64,000 bases of DNA from an uncultured Chloroflexia bacterium (GTDB taxonomy: Bacteria > Chloroflexota > Limnocylindria > QHBO01): positions 381,657 through 445,656 of the forward strand of contig CAWIVT010000008.1 of the NCBI GenBank assembly GCA_963839635.1, in the 5' to 3' direction. Shown one piece after another: positions 7,208 through 42,357 of the stretch. A program made the position numbers and the translations under genes. Numbering within the stretch: position 1 is the first letter of the stretch; every line of letters starts with the position of its first letter. The notes below the pieces were generated by a model. The model saw nothing but the letters and a program-made list of their open reading frames with translations. It did not search any database and was not told the DNA's origin.

Positions 7208-7714
7208 ATGGCCGATCGACCAGCCGCGCCCTCGGGGGCGCTCGATACCACCAAGTCCTACACGGCACGCCTCAAGACCGAGCGCGGCGATATCGTCGTC
7301 GAGCTCTATGCCGACCGAGTGCCCTTGACGGTCGAGAACTTCGTGAATCTCGCGCGGGCCGGCTTCTACGACGGGACGACCTTCCACCGCGTGATCAAGG
7401 GCTTCATGGCGCAGGGCGGCGATCCGACCGGCACGGGGACGGGCGGGCCGGGATACCAGTTCGGCGACGAGTTCCACCCATCGCTGCGCCACGACGGCCC
7501 CGGCGTCCTCTCGATGGCAAACGCGGGACCCGGCACGAACGGCAGCCAGTTCTTCATCACCCACTCGGCGACGCCGCACCTCGACAACCGCCACAGCGTC
7601 TTCGGCCGCGTGACCGAGGGAATGGACGTGGTGAACGCCCTCCGCGAGCGCGATCCACAGCGTGACCGAAATCCAGGTGAGCGAATCGAGACGATCGAGA
7701 TCACGGAGTCCTGA
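7208..7714 (+). CDS. cyclophilin-type peptidyl-prolyl cis-trans isomerase
   Basis: Contains [15 protein letters not shown]...[12 protein letters not shown], classic cyclophilin motifs. Confidence 0.92.
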
Positions 7715-7721
7715 GGATCCC

Positions 7722-8276
7722 GTGCGCCGGGGTCCGTTCGCCGCGCTGACGGTCGCCGCGCTGACGCTTGCCGGCTGCGGGCCCAGAGCGGACGCGACGC
7801 CCTCCGAGCCGGCCGCGCTCCCCTGCAGCAGCGAGCTGCCGGCGCGAACCTCACCAATCGACGTTCCCGTGGCCGTGCTCTACGTCGCCGGCGACGACCT
7901 GCCGCCAGTCGTGGGCGACGTCGAGTGGGTGACGGGCGGCGAGGAGCCGGTGGTCCACGAACCGGGGAGGCCGGTGCATCTCCAGCGCTTCACCGTCCTC
8001 CAGGCCCAGGGTCAGGCCGACATCTCGCTGCGCATGACCGATGGCGTGCGCATCGCCGCCTGGACCGTCGACGCCCTCCCGGACGGCTCGTTCCGGTCGG
8101 GTGATCTCGAGACCGGGCGCGTGCGCTGGAGCGAGGGGGACGATCCCACAGACGTGGTATGCATCCCCGCGCGCGACGGCGAGTGGGCCATCATCGCCGA
8201 CCTCACGTTTGCCGACGATGCCGGGCACGGCACCTACTTCTGGCGCCTCAACGTGAGCCAGACGCCGGGGACCTGA
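7722..8276 (+). CDS. lipoprotein of unknown function
   Basis: In-frame GTG at 7722 gives VRRGPFAALTVAALTLAGC (lipobox). It lies 7 nt after the PPIase stop. Confidence 0.55.
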   Translation: MRRGPFAALTVAALTLAGCGPRADATPSEPAALPCSSELPARTSPIDVPVAVLYVAGDDLPPVVGDVEWVTGGEEPVVHEPGRPVHLQRFTVLQAQGQADISLRMTDGVRIAAWTVDALPDGSFRSGDLETGRVRWSEGDDPTDVVCIPARDGEWAIIADLTFADDAGHGTYFWRLNVSQTPGT

Positions 8277-27658: not shown

Positions 27659-27817
27659 GTGACGTGGCGCCTTCCGGATCGCCACTTCAGCAAGGTGCAT
27701 CTCATCGGTGAGCCCGGCTCGACGATCTGCGGCCGCGCCCTTCCGCGCGCCATCGGCCAGCCGAAGGCGCCGATCCCCGATTCGGAGATGTGCCCGGACT
27801 GCGACGCCCAGGGCTAG
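27659..27817 (+). CDS. small Cys-containing hypothetical protein
   Basis: In-frame GTG at 27659. Reads [28 protein letters not shown]...[10 protein letters not shown]. No recognised family. Confidence 0.25.
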
Positions 27818-27889
27818 CTCCGCATTCCGATGGCATTCCCACCGGCCGCCGATCTCGAAGGCGGCCGGTCCGCTTTTCCGGCGTTGGTC

Positions 27890-28411
27890 GTGCCGGCCGA
27901 TGCGCTCGTCCTGCTGATCGGGATCGCGGCGAGCGGCAAGAGCACCTTCGCGGGCCGCGCACTTCGCTCCGACCGAGGTCCTCTCCTCGGACGCGCTGCG
28001 CGGCGATGATCACCGACGACCCGTCCGCGCAGGGCGCGACCGACGACGCGTTCGACCTGCTCCACCGCATCCTCGCCATGCGGCTGCGGCGCGGGCGGCT
28101 GACCGTCGTCGATGCCACGAACGTCGAGGAGTGGGCACGCGCCGAGCTGGTCGCCGATCGCCCGTCGCCACCGACGGCCGGCCGTCGCGATCGTCCTGGA
28201 CGTGCCGCTGGCCGGTCGCGCTCGAGCGGAACGCCACGCGCGCCGCGCCGCGCCCACCTCCGGCCGCCCTGCGCCGGCAGCATCGCCGGCTGATGGATTC
28301 CATCCTCGGCCTTGGGGCCGAGGGCTTCGCGGCCGTCCACCACTGCGGTCGGCGGAGGAGATCGACTCGGCCAGGATCGAGCGATCGCGCGCCCGGGAGC
28401 GTCAGTGCTGA
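27890..28411 (+). pseudogene. P-loop kinase (polynucleotide-kinase-like AAA ATPase), frameshifted
   Basis: LVLLIGIAASGKSTFA is a Walker A motif. ...LTVVDATNVEEWARAELV... and ...AVAIVLDVPL... are in three frames. Confidence 0.55.
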
Positions 28412-28424
28412 GGCCGGCTCGCGG

Positions 28425-28464
28425 CTGTCACGGGTTATATCACTACTGCTATAACCGCTGACAG
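28425..28464 (+). terminator. AT-rich imperfect hairpin followed by TTT (possible terminator of the kinase gene)
   Basis: Arms CTGTCACGGGTTATA and TATAACCGCTGACAG are complementary at 13 of 15 positions, with a 10-nt loop. The hairpin lies 14 nt after the stop at 28411. Confidence 0.4.
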
Positions 28465-28510
28465 TTTCACGGGCGTCGCCGCCCGAGGACGCCGGGCATC
28501 CGCTCAACCG

Positions 28511-28723
28511 GGACACACGAAGCGTCCCGAAGGAACAGGCGTCCGACTCCGGTGACCGAAGCCACCGAACCCGGTACCGGAACCTACAACCGAAGTCATG
28601 TGTTCCGGTATCGCTTGCCCCTTCGGGACGACCTCAGTATCGCCCGCCGTCCAGACGAGACGCAATACCACTTATCCCCGAACTTGCGACCGATACGGCG
28701 GCCTGTCCACAGCTCGTCCACGT
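28511..28723. repeat. 213-nt structured intergenic element, copy A (candidate ncRNA or MITE)
   Basis: Identical to 40834-41046 at 210 of 213 positions, with unrelated flanks. Contains multiple nested helices. See findings. Confidence 0.85.
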
Positions 28724-28845
28724 TGGGGCGTGTACTCGGTGCTTGCCCGCATCGCGAGCCGTCGCTTCGACCCTGTCAGCGCCACCCTCTGACAGGCAGG
28801 CTGCCTGACCCCTCCCGCCGCCATCGATCGCCACGCCGGACGCGG

Positions 28846-29970
28846 CTAAGGCAGCGACACCTCGATCGCCATGGTGGAGCCGCAGTCCTCGCACGTCACC
28901 GAACGTTCGCTGAGCCGCAGCGAAAAGCCATCGTCTGGAAGAGCATCGCGCGAGACCGCAACCACGAACACCGCGGCACCGGCCAGGGGTTGTGAACAGA
29001 CTCGCGGCGCGAGCGGGTCGGACGTGACGCTGAAGACCGTTCCATCGTCTACCTCGACGCCATCGAGCCTGAGCTCGGGACAGCCCCCGATGCCGTGCCC
29101 GAAGCTGACGACGACCTCAGTCTCAAAGTCGACAGCAGGCGGCTCCCCAACCAAGCCAAGCGCTCCCCACATCTGGGCCCACGTGGCAGAATCGGGCGCG
29201 GCGCGGACGGTGTGTGCCTCCGCGCTGCCGGTTTCGCCGAACGCGAGCAGCCGCCAGCCGTCGCCGTCGGCGGCGTTCTCCCAGGGACCGGGAACCGGGT
29301 GCACGGTGACGTCGAGACGCCCGCGATGAGCATTCTCCATTTGCTGCTCGAAGGTCGGATCGTTCGTCTTGACCTCGAGCGTGACGACGTTCCGAATGAT
29401 GTCGACCCCTGCGCCAACCAGCTCGAGCCCGGCATGGTTCATGGATGCAAGGTCGAGGCCCTCGAGGACCTCGTTGAGCTCGGCCTCCGTGAAGTCGACC
29501 CGCCGCACCCTCACGGCGACCCCCGCAGGCGCCAACGCGCTGGCCGCACGGGCGTGGCGCTCGACGTCGCGCGTGAAGAGGAGGACGACGTCGCCGCCGG
29601 CTGCCTGATCGATGTACATGCCGCCGAACGTATCGAAGTGCTCGGCGCCATACGCGGCCAGCATGCCCAGGTCGTCCTGGGCTTCGAACCGGCGATCGAG
29701 ATCGGCGGCCTCTTCGGGTGTCACGAGGAGGCCAAGGTCATGCCTCACCGAGTCGGCGGCGGCGTGGACGGCTTCAACGTACTCGACGTCCGAGCGCAAG
29801 CCGAAGTCGGTTCGCCTGATGATCGCATCGGCGATGTCCGCCGGCAGATCCGGATCGAAAGTGGGTGCCGGCTCGGGGCGCGGCGGGGGTTCGATGCGAG
29901 AGCCGCAGGCGGCGAGGAGCACGGCGGCCAGCATCAGGCTCCCTGCCCGGCCAATGCCCCGATATCGCAT
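28846..29970 (-). CDS. lipoprotein of unknown function
   Basis: Signal peptide plus lipobox (LLAACG). 374 aa with no recognised domain. Confidence 0.7.
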   Translation of the reverse strand: MRYRGIGRAGSLMLAAVLLAACGSRIEPPPRPEPAPTFDPDLPADIADAIIRRTDFGLRSDVEYVEAVHAAADSVRHDLGLLVTPEEAADLDRRFEAQDDLGMLAAYGAEHFDTFGGMYIDQAAGGDVVLLFTRDVERHARAASALAPAGVAVRVRRVDFTEAELNEVLEGLDLASMNHAGLELVGAGVDIIRNVVTLEVKTNDPTFEQQMENAHRGRLDVTVHPVPGPWENAADGDGWRLLAFGETGSAEAHTVRAAPDSATWAQMWGALGLVGEPPAVDFETEVVVSFGHGIGGCPELRLDGVEVDDGTVFSVTSDPLAPRVCSQPLAGAAVFVVAVSRDALPDDGFSLRLSERSVTCEDCGSTMAIEVSLP

Positions 29971-30011: not shown

Positions 30012-31171
30012 ATGACAGCCGCCACTCCTGGATCGTTGCGCGCGCGTGAGCTTGGGATCCAGATCGGACGCATGGAGCCCGGGCCGCTCAACGCGATCAC
30101 CGACGTCGCCGGCGTTCGCGTCGGCCACACGACGCTCATCGCCGGCGACGGGCCGCTGCGCCGAGGCGAAGGGCCGGTCCGGACGGGCGTCACGGTCGTC
30201 GTCCCGCATGACGGGACATCTGGACCGAGCCGGTGTTCGCCGGGTCGCATCGGCTCAACGGCAACGGCGAGCTGACCGGGCTGGAGTGGATCCGCGAGGC
30301 TGGCATGCTGGCCGGCGCGATCGGGATCACCAACACGCATACGGTCGGCGTCGTCCACGACGCGCTCATCGCGGCCGCCGCTCGCGCGCATCCGGCGGGC
30401 GACGACGTTCTGGGCGCTGCCGGTCGTGGGCGAGACGTACGACGGCGCGCTGAACGACATCGACGGCTTCCACGTACGGCCGGAGCACGTCGACGCGGCG
30501 CTGGCGGCCGCGAGCGACGGGCCGGTGGCCGAGGGCAACGTCGGCGGCGGGACCGGGATGATCTGCCACGAGCTCAAGGGCGGCATCGGCACCGCGTCGC
30601 GCCGCGCCGGCGACGGATGGACCGTCGGCGTGCTGGTCCAGGCCAACTACGGGACGCGCGAGCTGCTGCGCATCGATGGCGTGCCGGTCGGCGCAGCGAT
30701 CCCGCGCGACGAGGTGCCGTCCCCGTGGGACCAGGTCGAGGCGCTCAGTTCAAGGGCCGGGCCCGAGGGCGGCTCGATCATCGGCATCGTGGCAACCGAT
30801 GCGCCGCTCCTCCCCCACCAGTGCGCGCGGCTGGCGCAGCGGGTCGGGATGGGCGTTGCGCGCATGGGCAGCTACGCGTCGCACGGCTCGGGCGACCTGT
30901 TCTGCGCCTTTGCCACCGGCAACCGCGAACCTCTCGTACGATGCCGGCGAGGACGACCCGCGGCCCACGGTCGGACCTGCGCATGGTCGCCGACTCGAGC
31001 ACATCAACCCGCTGCTCGAGGCCGTCGTCGAGGCGCACCGAGGAGGCCATCACGAATGCGCTGCTCGCCGCGGAGACGATGACCGGGCGGGACGGCATCA
31101 CCGCCCATGCCCTCGACCCCCATCGGCTCGTCTCGGTGATGCGAGCCCACGGCCGGCTCGACCACGGCTGA
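30012..31171 (+). pseudogene. DmpA/S58 (P1) family aminopeptidase, frameshifted
   Basis: NAITDVAGVRVGHTT, NGNGELTG, VVGETYDG, GGGTGMICHELKGGIGTAS and GSGDLFCAFATGN are spread over at least 4 frame segments. Confidence 0.75.
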
Positions 31172-31330: not shown

Positions 31331-32278
31331 TCAGCGCTGGCGAGGATCGAGGGCGTCGCGCAGGCCGTCGCCGAGGAACGACGCGCTCATGACGATCGCC
31401 ACCAGGACCAGCCCCGGCCACGCGACGAGCGCCGGGTTGCGCAGGAAGTAGGTCCGCGCCTCGGTCAGCATGTTCCCGAGGCTCGCCTCCGGCTGGCTGA
31501 TCCCGAATCCCAGGAAGCTGAGTGCGGCCTCGATCACGACCGAGTCGGCCACGCCGAGCGTGGCGGCCACGATGATCGGCGCCAGGGCCGGGGGCAGCAT
31601 GTGGCGGACGATGATTCGCACGGGGCTGGCGCCGAGGGCGCGGGCGGCGGCGACGTAGTCCACCTCGCGCAGGCGCAGGAACTCGGCGCGCACCAGGCGG
31701 GCCGCGAGCGTCCACGACGTGATGCCGATGGCGATGATGATGACGAGCACGCTGCCACGACCCAGAAGCTGACGAGCGCCAGGATGATGAAGAGCGCCGG
31801 CAGGCTCAGCACGATGTCGACGATCCGCATCAGCAGGTTGTCGACCCAGCCGCCGACGTAGCCGGCGATCGAGCCCACGGTGATGCCCATCACGACGATG
31901 ATCAGGACCGCGGCGGTGCCGATGGAGAGACTCGTGCCCGTCGCCTTCGCCAGCCGGGCGAGCACGTTCTGGCCGATGTCGCTGTAGCCGAGCGGGGCGA
32001 TGCGCATGACGCCGGCCTCGTCGGTGCCGATCTCCGGTGGGGCGTTGACCTTCGACAGGACCGCCGCGCGCCAGGCATCGCCGGTGAGCGCGGGGATGAC
32101 GAGCGCGCCGACACGAGCACCGTCAGCACGACCAGGCCGACGACGGCCAGGCGGTTGCGGAGGAAGCGCTGACGGGCCAGCTGCCAGTAGGTCCGGACCG
32201 GGGTGCGGTCGAGCAGCTCGGCGATCGACCGAATCGATATCGCGTTCGGCCGCCGCCGCGGATCTCGAGCTGTGCCAT
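31331..32278 (-). pseudogene. peptide/nickel ABC transporter permease (DppC/OppC-like), frameshifted
   Basis: The C-terminal part ITSWTLAARLVRAEFLRLREVDYVAAARALGAS... is in ORF 31331..31750. Earlier parts are in ORFs 31534..32487 and 31902..33257. Confidence 0.7.
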
Positions 32279-32293
32279 CGGCCGGGACCTCCG

Positions 32294-33257
32294 TCAGGAG
32301 AGCTTGATGCGCGGGATCGGCGACCGCGTAGAAGACGTCGGCCAGCAGGTTGCCGAGCACGACGCCGACGCCGCCGATCATCACGAACGAGAGGACGACC
32401 GGGTAGTCGCGCTTGGCGACCGCGTCGACGCCCATGGGCCGACGCCGGGATAGCTGAAGATCGCCTCGGTGATCGCCGCCCCGCCAAGCAGCGTCGGGAT
32501 GGTGAGCCCGATGAGCGTGATCACGGGGATGATCGCGTTGCGCAGCGCGTGCTTGTACGTCACGCGGTGCGCGGGCAGGCCCTTCGCGCGCGCCGTGCGC
32601 ACGTAGTCCTGGTGGAGCACCTCGAGCATCGCCGCTCGAACGTAGCGCGACCAGCCGGCAACCTGCTGGATGGCGAGGCTGGCGCACCGGCAGAACCAGG
32701 TGCCAGGCAATGTCGACGGGATCACCGTCGCTGCCGAATGTCTCGAGGCCGAAGAGCGGGAACCATCCCAGCACGACGCCGCCGAAGAAGAGGAGGTAGA
32801 GCCCGAGGAGGAACGACGGGATCGCGTAGCCGATCGTCGCGAGGCTGCTGATGATCCGATCGGCCCAGCTGTACTGCCTGACCGCCGCCAGGATGCCGAG
32901 CGGGATGGCCAGCAGGATGGTCACGAGCAGCGCAGTGCCTCCCAGCAGCAGGGTGGCCGGCAGCCGCTCGGCGATCTTGTGGAGCACCGGCTGGCCGTCG
33001 AGGAACGAGTAGCCCCACGCCTCGGGACGCCAGACCTGGACGTATGTCGTGATCCAGCTGAAGAACTGCTCGTGGAGTGGCCGATCCAGCCCGTAGAGGC
33101 GGATGAGCCCCTCGAGCTGCTCAGGTCGGATCGTCGGGGTGCGAAACCGATCGATCGGGTCGCCCGGCGACAGGTGGACGAGCGCGAAGCTGACGATGGC
33201 GACGCCGAACAGGATCGGCACCGCCTGGATCATCCGCCGCGCGACGTAGCCGGCCAT
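32294..33257 (-). pseudogene. peptide/nickel ABC transporter permease (DppB/OppB-like), frameshifted
   Basis: MAGYVARRMIQAVPILFGV..., then ...[10 protein letters not shown]... in ORF 32381..32725. The canonical C-terminus DPRIKLS* is restored by removing one G from the run at 32313-32315. Confidence 0.7.
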
Positions 33258-40031: not shown

Positions 40032-40787
40032 TCAGCCATCGAGTCCGATGTGCGCGGCGAGGAACGCGCGGCGATCTCGAGCCGCCTCCGGGACGCGCAT
40101 GCCGTGGTCGGCCTCGTACGCGTGCAGCTCCTTGGGGTCGCCGGCCGCGGCCTGGAACTCGAGCCCGGTCATCGAGGCGATGAAGAAGTCGCCGCGCGCG
40201 AACTGGAAGCAGACCGGGCGCGGGCTGATCTCCCCGACACGGCTGATCGGGTCGAGCGGTGCGATCGCTCGGAGGTAGTCATGACGGTCCTCCGCGATCG
40301 GCCAGAAGGGCAGGAACCAGTCGCCCCAGCGCGGCGTGGCGGCGATGAGCACGACGGCGGCGATGCGCGGATCCTCCGCGGCCAGGAGCGTGCCGTGCAT
40401 CCCCCCGAAATCGTGTCCGACGAGGGCGATGCGGGCGGGGTCGACGTCCGGCCTCGCGGCCAACAGGTCGAGTGCGACACGATGTCGTTCGACCTCGGCT
40501 CGAATGCGCTCTGCGTCCGCCTCTGCGCCGGACGGCTCCCCCGCCCAGGGAAACCGCCCCTGCGGAAGGATCGAGACGACGCCCAGGTCGCGAGCCAGGC
40601 CCTCCGCCTCCGCCAGGAACTGCGTGCGGTCGCCGTCCGGCGCCTCGGTGTCGAACCAGTGCAGGAAGAGGATCGCCGCGCCGGTCCCTCCCGCGTCGGG
40701 GGACACGAGGAACGCCTCGACGTCATCGGCGATGCGAATGTCCTGGACGCGGGCGTCCACGCGGCGGATCGGGGTCGGATCGGTCAT
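40032..40787 (-). CDS. dienelactone-hydrolase-like alpha/beta hydrolase
   Basis: GHDFGG nucleophile elbow. 251 aa. Confidence 0.75.
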   Translation of the reverse strand: MTDPTPIRRVDARVQDIRIADDVEAFLVSPDAGGTGAAILFLHWFDTEAPDGDRTQFLAEAEGLARDLGVVSILPQGRFPWAGEPSGAEADAERIRAEVERHRVALDLLAARPDVDPARIALVGHDFGGMHGTLLAAEDPRIAAVVLIAATPRWGDWFLPFWPIAEDRHDYLRAIAPLDPISRVGEISPRPVCFQFARGDFFIASMTGLEFQAAAGDPKELHAYEADHGMRVPEAARDRRAFLAAHIGLDG

Positions 40788-40833: not shown

Positions 40834-41046
40834 GGACACACGAAGCGTCCCGAAGGAACAGGCGTCCGACTCCGGTGACCGAAGCCACCGAACCCGGTAC
40901 CGGAACCTACAACCGAAGTCATCTGTTCCGGTATCGCTTGCCCCTTCGGGACGACCTCAGTATTGCCCGCCGTCCAGACGAGACGCAATACCACTTATCC
41001 CCGAACTTGCGACCGATACGGCCGCCTGTCCACAGCTCGTCCACGT
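40834..41046. repeat. 213-nt structured intergenic element, copy B
   Basis: Same orientation as copy A. Differs only at 40923, 40964 and 41023. Confidence 0.85.
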
Positions 41047-41097: not shown

Positions 41098-42357
41098 TCA
41101 GATGCCCTTGAGCGCGGAGATGCGACGCCAGGATTCGTCGATCCGTGACTCGGAGATGCGGCCGCTGCGGACGAGGCCCTCGACGACGTCGATGGTTCGC
41201 GCGGCAACGTCGGCCTCGTACACGATCTGGTTGGCAACCACCAGCAGGTCGATTCCAGCTTCGATTGCCAGGGCGACCGCCTCTTCATAGCCGTAGGCAT
41301 CCCGTATGGCGCCCATCTGCATGTCATCGCTGAGAACGGCTCCATCCCACCCGAGCTGCTCGCGCAGGATGCCCGTGACCGTCGCGCGCGAGAGCGTCGC
41401 CGGATGATCGGCGTCCAGCCGGGAATTGAAGACGTGGGCGGTGAGGACGGCATCGGCCCGGCCATCCCCGATCAGCGTCGCGAACGGCTCGAGCTCGGTC
41501 TCGGTCCAGGTGGCCGTCACGTCGACGACCCCCAGGTGCGTGTCGCCCATCGAGCTGCCGTGCCCCGGAAAGTGCTTCAGCGTGCAGCGGAGGCCGATCT
41601 CGTGGTGCCCGTCGATGAATGCGCCGGCCTGCGCTGCCACCTTCATGGGATCGACCCCGAAGCTGCGGCCGAGCGCGGCGATGATCGGATTGTCGGGGTT
41701 GACGGCGAGATCCACCACTGGCGCGAGGTTGAGGGTGATGCCGCCGGCGGCGAGGACCTCGGCGGCGGCCCGGCTCTCGGCCCGCGTCACGGCGAGGTCG
41801 TCGAGCCGACCGAGCTCGGCGGCCGACCGGGGCGGCGCCGGAAAGCCGTTGGCCGGGCCCAGTCGCGCCACTCGCCCGCCCTCCTGGTCGATCGCAACGA
41901 GCAGCGGAGCTAGACCGGCCGCCGATTGAAGCGCGCCGACCAGTGCTGCCAGCTGCTCCGGCGACTCGACGTTGCGCGGGCCGCCGGTCGGCTGATCCAC
42001 GCTGAAGAGCACCACGCCACCGAGCCCGAGCTGGGTCACCTGGTCCAACGTCGGCCGCGCCTCGTCGGGGGTGCGCCCACGGAAGCCGACGACGATCATC
42101 TGCGCGATCCGCTCCCGCAGCGTCGGCCCGGTCGGGGACGGCGCGGGGATCGGCGAAGGAGTGGTCGGCGCGCTCGGCCGGACCGTTCCCGAGTGCCGGG
42201 GCGAGACGGAGCCGACCGCTGCGGCGCACGCGGCGGTGATCAACCCGACGGCGCCAGCCAGCGCGGCGGCCAGGAGGCGACGGCGCGAGAGCATCGGCCC
42301 GATGGTAGCGCTACGATATCTGGGCCGCGTGCGCGCTCCTCGATGGATCACTCTCAC
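41098..42357 (-). CDS. glycoside hydrolase family 3 (beta-N-acetylhexosaminidase-like) lipoprotein
   Basis: Contains GGVVLF, IDQEGGRVARL and KHFPGHG motifs. The likely true start is MLSRRRLL at 42294 (Tat/lipobox). Confidence 0.85.
   Translation of the reverse strand: MRVIHRGARTRPRYRSATIGPMLSRRRLLAAALAGAVGLITAACAAAVGSVSPRHSGTVRPSAPTTPSPIPAPSPTGPTLRERIAQMIVVGFRGRTPDEARPTLDQVTQLGLGGVVLFSVDQPTGGPRNVESPEQLAALVGALQSAAGLAPLLVAIDQEGGRVARLGPANGFPAPPRSAAELGRLDDLAVTRAESRAAAEVLAAGGITLNLAPVVDLAVNPDNPIIAALGRSFGVDPMKVAAQAGAFIDGHHEIGLRCTLKHFPGHGSSMGDTHLGVVDVTATWTETELEPFATLIGDGRADAVLTAHVFNSRLDADHPATLSRATVTGILREQLGWDGAVLSDDMQMGAIRDAYGYEEAVALAIEAGIDLLVVANQIVYEADVAARTIDVVEGLVRSGRISESRIDESWRRISALKGI

Follow-up and report, generated by a model that had tools for sequence, protein, structure and literature searches.

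Several bacterial small RNAs (sRNAs) are encoded in multiple copies, each with conserved upstream activating sequences (for example, RsmX/Y/Z, CsrB/C, Qrr1–5 and OmrA/B). The RNA described here, encoded twice in the window (that is, the whole 64-kb stretch of Limnocylindria DNA that was analysed), resembles the Rsm/Csr, Qrr and Omr RNAs in having paralogous genes, very high expression, a putative promoter region as conserved as the RNA and repeated upstream boxes, and its repeated similar hairpins (P5, P6 and P7) suggest multivalent protein binding, as in CsrB/Rsm. Unlike these RNAs, it lacks exposed GGA loops and any sequence or Rfam similarity to them, and in contrast to sigma-54-driven sRNAs the TGG-to-TTGC spacing of its unit is wrong; a CsrB/Rsm-type sponge acting through GGA loops was rejected, the loops being UUCG (UUGC or UUAC in a few P5 arms), although a multivalent decoy mechanism is conceivable. 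As with the YrlA/YrlB Y RNAs, an abundant RNA of about 100–150 nt ends in a long conserved stem, is sometimes present in two copies and, as in rsr–rtcBA loci, adjoins a gene for an RNA-repair-type enzyme (here, a stand-alone Pnkp-like kinase). However, the Limnocylindria RNA has no Ro (TROVE) gene, tRNA-like domain or Rfam Y_RNA match, the kinase gene is convergent rather than co-transcribed, and a second conserved site has no such neighbour; a Y RNA/Ro ribonucleoprotein was rejected, as no TROVE domain was present among the neighbours tested.

With 5S rRNA, the RNA shares its size, a closing terminal helix, a three-way junction with two arms, several gene copies and very high depth, but it has no RF00001 match (at E values up to 10), loop E/loop A motifs or linkage to rRNA operons, and many members have four helices. 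Like the raiA motif, OLE, ROOL, GOLLD and IMES RNAs, it combines conservation and covariation in an uncultured or poorly studied lineage with high metatranscriptome expression and an orphan function, although it is much smaller and simpler than these, lacks conserved single-stranded junctions or pseudoknots and is confined, as far as searched, to one class of Chloroflexota. Its likeness to MITEs and REP/BIME elements (that is, a short intergenic repeat with strong predicted structure and a G+C content below that of adjacent genes) is set against fixed orthologous positions, no terminal inverted repeats (TIRs) or target-site duplications (TSDs), a low copy number per genome, a fold that is asymmetric and specific to one strand, and a transcript that is discrete and abundant.

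Searches with Rfam 15 gave no match at gathering score in the whole window and, with lax filters, only noise at E values of 5–10 for 28350–28900 together with 12 other family members (14 members in total); in the literature, we found no description of such an RNA in Limnocylindria. Beyond the 5S rRNA and Y RNA readings, 6S RNA was rejected (the three- or four-way junction has no bubble, and there was no RF00013 match), as were the guide RNAs of IS200/IS605 or IS110 elements (omega RNA, reRNA and bridge RNA), with no TnpB, IscB or IS110 recombinase gene in the 8-kb blocks flanking the copies and no HEARO match; the upstream variable segments, taken as guides, had no matches elsewhere in the window. 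The proposal of an earlier note that the repeat is a candidate novel non-coding RNA (ncRNA) thus holds on four counts: the absence of an Rfam match in the window or relatives, where the note had asked for this comparison, covarying helices, a minus-strand fold and transcripts. The family is new, and the kind of gene it represents (an independent bacterial small RNA gene) is already known. We suggest, with a probability of roughly 0.7, that each repeat is a self-contained small ncRNA gene with its conserved promoter and regulatory region, giving rise to a highly expressed RNA that, less certainly, acts in trans.

The repeat unit and its RNA core

The two copies of the unit in the window are direct repeats 12.3 kb apart that share 210 of 213 positions and differ at 28600 (G/C), 28641 (C/T) and 28700 (G/C), which lie in the P5 internal loop, at the first position of a −10-like hexamer and in a variable spacer, respectively. 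These differences, and flanks that are unrelated (26% and 29% identity over 100 nt, which is background), were recomputed and agree with the earlier note, as does a G+C content of 62.0% against 70.3% for the window; CGAA, which it had counted five times on the plus strand of the unit, occurs six times (about one expected). A profile search of the window found these two copies only, and the unit boundaries were the same in more than 100 relatives (nhmmer and family alignments). Because the window seems to carry frameshifts, its gene calls are approximate, and the genes around the copies were defined by cross-locus clustering of open reading frames together with Pfam/NCBIfam and tblastn. Of the 213-nt RNA element first envisaged, the structured ncRNA stands, but only about 108 nt (28522–28629, minus strand) are structured and abundant.

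28511–28723, minus: copy A unit, with a putative upstream control region, the small RNA gene and a short conserved tail (210/213 identity to copy B; family boundaries)
40834–41046, minus: copy B unit (repeat comparison; profile search)
28522–28629, minus: copy A small RNA core, 108 nt (fold; covariance-model hit over exactly these coordinates; RNA contigs), with a predicted 5′ end at 28629 and a 3′ end near 28522 from RNA contigs
40845–40952, minus: copy B small RNA core (covariance-model hit of 117.8 bits)
28612–28629, minus: P4 5′ strand GUCCCGAAGGGGCAAGCG, pairing with 28524–28541; two invariant G–U pairs in 98 sequences, sequence nearly invariant
28575–28610, minus: P5 arm with a cUUCGg loop (28591–28594); 9 of 13 pairs changed on both sides
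28543–28574, minus: P7 arm with the invariant apex GGCUUCGG (loop 28557–28560); 6 of 11 pairs changed on both sides
28524–28541, minus: P4 3′ strand CGCCUGUUCCUUCGGGAC, followed by GC and then UUCG; probable termination region

The minus strand of 28522–28629 (40845–40952 in copy B) encodes a compact, very stable RNA. The core folds at −69.8 kcal/mol (z = −7.83, frequency of the minimum free energy (MFE) structure 0.61), with a mean z of −6.3 over 40 relatives. Its terminal helix P4, of 17 bp (14 + 3), is formed from both ends of the RNA, encloses P5 and P7 and closes a three-way junction, the two arms each being capped by cUUCGg; the long-range helix and the two enclosed hairpins reported earlier correspond to P4, P7 and P5 and recur in 98 relatives. 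In about two thirds of relatives a third arm, P6 (a UUCG hairpin between P5 and P7 that resembles P7 and may be its duplicate), is present, so that cores measure either 104–109 nt (short form) or, with P6, 137–143 nt (long form, four helices). The palindrome CCGGTACCGG noted at the centre is the P5/P7 junction, at which longer relatives have the additional hairpin. Fewer than about a dozen core nucleotides are unpaired, the hairpin loops of the family are UUCG (with the P5 exceptions given above), and the junction nucleotides vary whereas the P4 helix and the tetraloops are invariant.

Covariation supports this predicted fold. In the alignments (A2, 48 members; A3, 98 members), a well-aligned 3′ part is preceded by conserved 5′ blocks split by hypervariable stretches of fixed length. 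Across the 98 sequences, 89.7% of cells are paired, against 30–49% when partners are slid by 1–3 columns, and 23 of 56 pairs are changed on both sides, against 15.5 ± 2.0 in shuffles, with none of 500 shuffles matching any observed measure; the covariation check that had been proposed therefore came out in favour of the core, in which compensatory changes exceed those of all 500 shuffles. The apical pair of P5, for example, is UA in 49 sequences, CG in 38 and UG in 11. P4 hardly varies, its tandem G–U pairs included, and divergent members lengthen its base with compensatory C–G, A–U and U–G pairs. The short helices Px (5′ GAC with the GUC beside P4) and P3a–c were rejected as invariant or inconsistent and as contradicted by divergent members, and a fold of the whole 213 nt as one RNA was rejected because helices of the 5′ half are not conserved.

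The invariant G–U pairs of P4 would be A–C mismatches on the plus strand, as would the frequent G–U pairs of P5 and P7 (many in P7), and the former fix the predicted RNA strand as minus. The whole unit folds at −110.7 kcal/mol (z = −5.9) on the minus strand and at −76.4 kcal/mol (z = −3.1) on the plus strand, and among relatives the reverse complement of the core has a mean z of −3.6 against −6.3. A covariance model of the core (R1) scored 119.9 bits (copy A) and 117.8 bits (copy B) on the minus strand against 29 bits on the plus strand, with the next best match in the window at 13 bits (E values of the model are rough). The preference of the earlier note for the minus strand is thus well founded; its argument for the plus strand, from the C/T change at 28641, falls away, as this position lies outside the RNA, in the −10-like hexamer.

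The conserved upstream region

The 94 nt upstream of the core (28630–28723) fold like shuffled sequence (z = 0.08; mean z = −0.27 over 40 relatives), and RNAalifold, averaged pair probabilities, APC-corrected mutual information and per-sequence folds found no consensus pairs in this part. Neither a helix between 28637–28642 and 28691–28696 nor a closing GGACA/TGTCC helix, both of which had been proposed, is conserved by these measures. The complementarity of the two upstream variable segments to each other was no greater, in duplex energies, than that to the segments of other members. The lack of a conserved fold in this half argues for a promoter reading. Across 103 relatives, the region is laid out with rigid spacing between boxes and hypervariable filler sequence, as GTGGAY-N5-GTGGAYA-N23-[C/G]GGGGATAA-N6-TTGNNN-N18-NATACT-N6-GTCCCG, with the following elements in copy A.

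28716–28721 and 28705–28710, minus: a direct repeat of the GTGGAC box, with the two starts 11 bp apart
28666–28682, minus: conserved box TTCGGGGATAAGTGGTA abutting the −35-like hexamer; CGGGGATAA nearly invariant in 98 sequences
28660–28665, minus: −35-like hexamer TTGCGT, with 18 nt between it and the −10-like hexamer; TTG invariant
28636–28641, minus: −10-like hexamer, GATACT here and AATACT in copy B, separated by 6 nt from the downstream G at 28629; NATACT in 102 of 103 relatives

The pair GTGGAY-N5-GTGGAY is present in 102 of the 103 relatives and the N23 spacing in 99; the spacer between the −35- and −10-like hexamers, hypervariable in sequence, is 18 nt long in 83 and 17 nt in 17, and NATACT lies 6 nt from GTCCCG in 100. 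On the basis of this arrangement, the 94-nt region is most likely promoter and regulatory DNA: the hexamers, the 18-nt spacer and the N6 stretch would fit sigma-70 geometry, the predicted +1 being the G at 28629, which is the first to be paired in P4. The GTGGAC boxes, whose 11-bp spacing would suit a regulator that binds in tandem, and the CGGGGATAA box are putative regulator sites. The promoter and the terminator are both read from geometry. A scan of the unit for consensus promoters and terminators made no call; the promoter goes uncalled because the window hexamers TTGCGT and GATACT match only 7 of 12 consensus positions. Elsewhere in the window, there was no further exact instance of the GTGGAC pair and no GGGGATAA–TTG–ATACT arrangement, and the TTCGGGGATAAGTGGTA box occurs at the two copies only. 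Two other readings were rejected: sigma-54 recognition of GTGG..TTGCG, for which the spacing is wrong (by inspection), and an ECF-type reading (GGGGATAA ... CGTC), which applies to a subfamily only and does not fit the RNA ends.

Distribution, genomic sites and transcripts

An exact 21-mer from the unit retrieved 63 stretches from 36 species-level metagenome-assembled genomes (MAGs) of a species-representative genome collection, and a profile search found 67 copies in those stretches. Thirty-two of the MAGs are labelled Candidatus Limnocylindria, Limnocylindrales, Chloroflexota or Chloroflexia; the other four share the same gene neighbourhood and are therefore probably mis-binned. In soil and permafrost metagenome runs, the unit is present without the window flanks, on short high-depth contigs with other flanks. 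A second, independent pattern, which combined the P7 apex with the P4 3′ strand, was found in at least 120 metagenome contigs, with 100 family members among the matches listed and 20 of the 120 listed matches discarded as chance occurrences in coding sequence. The check on copy number and conservation that had been suggested thus yields a family in 36 MAGs and at least 100 metagenome contigs, with 2–4 or more gene copies per genome across the class Limnocylindria; among 106 representatives with less than 96% identity to one another, the median pairwise value is 77%. No match to the unit was found by BLAST in phage and plasmid collections, nor to the second pattern in IMG/VR viral contigs. All relatives are MAG or metagenome sequences found through two search blocks, which relatives without both blocks would escape, and P4 and the P7 apex owe part of their invariance to ascertainment, as both served as search patterns; each search set nevertheless independently shows the block of the other search to be invariant.

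Copies that share a contig (12 contigs and the window) always have the same orientation and lie 7–21 kb apart. Their pairwise identities are bimodal: six pairs, including that of the window, are 98–99% identical over the whole unit, and six are 67–79% identical, such that paralogues are near-identical in about half of the genomes examined, whereas orthologues between species are about 70–90% identical. Gene conversion between paralogous RNA genes would produce such a pattern, and the copies presumably undergo concerted evolution. Among 169 copies, many of which are truncated at contig ends, two main sites were tallied.

Site A, upstream (window copy A): a divergent Peptidase_S58 or EamA gene
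Site A, downstream: a convergent gene for a homologue of about 186 amino acids of the Pnkp polynucleotide-kinase domain, then phosphofructokinase (60 of 169 copies converge on the kinase gene)
Site B, upstream (window copy B): a divergent MarR gene, or GH3, the latter being the case in the window
Site B, downstream: an alpha/beta hydrolase gene 47–64 nt away in the same orientation (27 of 169 copies)

The Pnkp-like kinase gene is the most frequent neighbour, with its stop codon 2–15 nt from the unit, and encodes a stand-alone homologue of the Pnkp 5′-kinase domain (TIGR04075 positions 2–168, E = 1.5e-53); on the other side of site A, the divergent gene starts only 17–50 nt from the unit edge. 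In the window, the copy B unit ends 47 nt upstream of the alpha/beta hydrolase gene (40032–40787, minus); on its other side it follows the GH3 gene (41098–42357, minus) at a distance of 55 nt. The neighbours are housekeeping genes, and no transposase, integrase, TnpB/IscB, IS110 recombinase or reverse transcriptase was found near the copies (8-kb blocks and neighbour genes). The ends CGTGGAC... and ...GTGYCC are not inverted repeats of each other, so that terminal inverted repeats are lacking, and the inspection of copy ends that had been advised, carried out on the flanks of 45 copies, revealed no target-site duplication. The same syntenic sites are filled in species whose copies are only 67–90% identical.

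Soil and rhizosphere communities contain the RNA at very high levels. The unit is present in many soil, rhizosphere and ice metatranscriptome runs, for which the data are directionless assembler contigs from mixed communities. In three small rhizosphere runs of one study (X26, X29 and X38; 62–94 million letters), the word depth over the core ranges from hundreds to about 19,000 for the window copy and reaches about 35,000 for a long-form relative (L047), with zero depth in the flanks and throughout the upstream region, the invariant boxes included. A discrete abundant transcript is thus observed with the conserved structure: RNA contigs and read starts stop at 28521–28529, depth ends at the end of P4, and adapter-joined contigs place insert ends at window positions 28522 and 28615, 28620 or 28621, and in L047 at its positions 2841, 2842 and 2845 (that is, 6–10 nt inside the P4 start). 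Random-primed libraries usually lose the last 5–15 nt at true 5′ ends, which could explain why the captured 5′ ends are ragged and lie 6–15 nt inside the predicted start. All of the roughly ten adapter junctions (X26, X29, X38 and X32) have one polarity, with read 1 on the window plus strand, which would indicate a minus-strand RNA if the libraries are of the dUTP type. Lower-depth runs (X28, X32 and X39) also cover the upstream region, at one third of the core depth to equal depth and once past the unit; this could reflect a precursor, read-through or DNA carry-over. As to the transcript that the earlier note had asked for, transcripts do exist, with an abundant core and one polarity, but the abundant species is not of about 210 nt.

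Proposed function and rival explanations

If each unit is indeed a self-contained gene, the upstream 94 nt would drive the RNA from the −35 TTGCGT and −10 GATACT hexamers across the 18-nt spacer and 6-nt discriminator, with the CGGGGATAA box and the two GTGGAC repeats, one helical turn apart, serving as regulator sites. Transcription would start at the G of GUCCCG (28629) and would end, or the RNA would be trimmed, just after the P4 3′ strand. The product may then act in trans as a very stable protein-binding decoy or scaffold, with candidate contact surfaces in the invariant P4 sequence (tandem G–U pairs and a bulged A) and in the repeated GGCUUCGG hairpins. We prefer this decoy or scaffold reading, tentatively and at odds well short of even. 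As nearly all nucleotides are paired and the loops are closed tetraloops, there is no obvious antisense seed, which makes protein-binding action in trans the most likely mode, and the conservation of the P4 sequence and of one or two GGUGGCUUCGGUCACC hairpins beyond the needs of pairing points to protein recognition. A possible but more doubtful form of the proposal is that the RNA is the core of a lineage-specific ribonucleoprotein (RNP), either with the Pnkp-like kinase as partner or the RNA as its substrate (in repair or surveillance, compare Ro/Y RNA–Rtc) or as a decoy for a global regulator. The Pnkp-like neighbour is the sole candidate partner and a lead toward an RNA-repair or surveillance role, but its association with the RNA may be plain inherited synteny.

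We consider it unlikely that the whole unit of about 213–249 nt is a precursor whose unstructured 5′ leader is cleaved beside P4 to leave the stable core, in which case the boxes would act in the RNA, as signals for processing or protein binding, and the promoter would have to be placed further upstream. Contigs of X28, X32 and X39 do run from the core into the upstream region and once beyond, the abundant species begins inside the P4 5′ strand and not precisely at the predicted +1, and the 5′ box UCGUGGACG is complementary to CGUCCCGA, such that an alternative helix could form; yet no conserved promoter lies upstream of the unit, where flanks vary between sites and the divergent gene at site A leaves little room, the highest-depth runs have zero depth upstream, the fixed 18- and 6-nt spacing of TTG, NATACT and the first paired G suits promoter geometry, and 5′ ends that are ragged and 6–15 nt short are what random-primed libraries give at true ends. 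More improbable still, in our view, is a cis-acting leader, riboswitch or attenuator of a downstream gene (for example, the alpha/beta hydrolase at copy B). In many MAGs, the site B unit does precede the hydrolase gene and shares its orientation, with a divergent MarR gene on the other side, a typical regulator–target layout, but the gene downstream of the commonest site (60 copies) converges on the unit and so offers no cis target, RNA depth stops at the end of P4, and conserved helices with closed tetraloops and variable junctions are the opposite of a ligand-binding aptamer; the riboswitch candidate was rejected on these grounds.

Judged by its placement at fixed syntenic sites across Limnocylindria, the unit is not a mobile element, an option that the earlier note had kept alongside an ncRNA. 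Sharp boundaries, unrelated flanks, near-identical copies within a genome, contigs that often break at the unit, a single orientation for all copies of a contig and two hypervariable segments of 18–23 nt between conserved blocks might each be expected of a non-autonomous element, be it a MITE, a REP-like element or an IS200/IS605-type end, or of the remnant of an omega or bridge guide RNA. Such an origin is nevertheless highly improbable given the occupation of the same sites by copies of only 67–90% identity in different species, the lack of TIRs, target duplications and transposase, TnpB, IscB, IS110 or reverse transcriptase neighbours, the absence from phage, plasmid and viral collections, and variable segments unmatched in the window. 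We give the least credence to a very divergent member of a known RNA (5S rRNA, 6S, SRP or Y RNA): the rRNA-like depth in some runs, the several gene copies, the length of about 110–140 nt and a closing helix with two arms recall 5S rRNA in particular, but 14 members searched with lax filters met no Rfam family at E values of 5–10, the long form has four helices, and neither the central bubble of 6S, the GNAR/AGCA domain IV motifs of SRP RNA nor a nearby Ro gene is present.

The Limnocylindria, once called Ellin6529/CSP1-4, belong to the common uncultured Chloroflexota that live in soils and fresh water; to our knowledge, nothing is known of their RNA biology. Given its class-wide distribution, several homogenised copies and depths of thousands in small metatranscriptomes, the RNA is likely to be physiologically important. 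It could mark Limnocylindria activity in metatranscriptomes, where such reads now go unannotated, and the family is a clean candidate for Rfam. The unusual architecture (closed UUCG loops in nearly all arms, buried ends and one helix invariant in sequence) makes the RNA an attractive target in the search for a new RNA–protein partnership, and the conserved upstream boxes provide a handle on a regulator in an uncultured group. If the RNP reading is true, rhizosphere soil would contain the RNA in near-ribosomal amounts, and the RNA would constitute a new functional class of bacterial RNA rather than another base-pairing sRNA.

The kinase-like gene facing the small RNA

At its commonest site, the small RNA converges with a gene for a Pnkp-like kinase, which adjoins 60 of the 169 unit copies and has a fragmentary counterpart in the window:

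L045 (a Gaiellales MAG stretch carrying a unit copy) 7248-7805, minus strand, Pnkp-like kinase gene, convergent with the small RNA
Window 27790-28293, plus strand, fragmentary Pnkp-like kinase gene

The stand-alone product (approximately 186 amino acids) is homologous to the 5'-OH polynucleotide kinase domain that bacterial Pnkp carries; it matches TIGR04075 over positions 2-168 (E = 1.5e-53), and its similarity to KTI12/PSTK is weak. Functionally, an abundant structured RNA might be linked here to an enzyme of the RNA-repair type. An imperfect inverted repeat of 15 nt (CTGTCACGGGTTATA ... TATAACCGCTGACAG; window 28425-28464, plus strand) forms a hairpin (z = -5.0) followed by TTTCA. The plus-strand kinase-like gene probably has its terminator in this hairpin, which points toward the 3' end of the small RNA. 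Some soil metagenome contigs carry a sequence resembling the hairpin.

Copies sharing a contig and contigs in other bins

Pairwise identity between unit copies on the same contig is bimodal:

98-99% identity: L002/L004, L008/L050, L009/L054, L049/L051, L025/L042
67-79% identity: L010/L013, L012/L034, L023/L038, L046/L061, L048/L056 and the two copies in L003

In the former the identity extends to the hypervariable spacers, and the latter sometimes combine one short and one long form; the bimodality suggests that gene conversion has acted episodically and on the unit as a whole. Units also occur on contigs from non-Chloroflexota bins, namely L007 and L063 (Steroidobacteraceae MAGs), L045 and L053 (a Binatia MAG). 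Given that their unit neighbours are the same genes as at Limnocylindria loci, these contigs were probably mis-binned.

Divergent genes and the upstream region

A conserved block (..ATTATGGTGACCATAACCATTCTGTCAA..), seen in L020, L016, L008, L037, L046, L049, L007/L053 and L012, lies 20-90 nt upstream of the unit and separates it from a divergent MarR gene. On the marR strand it contains TTGACA-N16-CATAAT and repeated AACCATT, motifs by which it is likely to be the marR promoter and operator. Elsewhere (L009, L050, L051, L003, L004, L024 and L058), Peptidase_S58 genes start on the opposite strand, 17-50 nt upstream of the unit edge, with TAGACT approximately 7 nt ahead of the ATG. This arrangement suggests that the mRNAs lack leaders and that the divergent control region, shared with the GTGGAC boxes, is very tight. 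In the window, overlapping ORFs (30233-31171, 30426-31082 and 31902-33257) split or fuse Peptidase_S58 and oligopeptide-permease domains, suggesting frameshift errors (perhaps from long-read assembly) or pseudogenes. The window also holds a 300-nt direct repeat (3-302 and 1005-1304; 83% identity, spaced 1002 nt), probably two paralogous coding segments.

In the A2 and A3 alignments (48 and 98 family members), the 5' box UCGUGGACG (window 28715-28723) is complementary to CGUCCCGA (28622-28630) at the start of P4, the terminal helix of the small RNA core. When the 3' strand of P4 is left out, the two pair in most of the aligned sequences; if the upstream region were ever transcribed, this pairing would form a competing helix.
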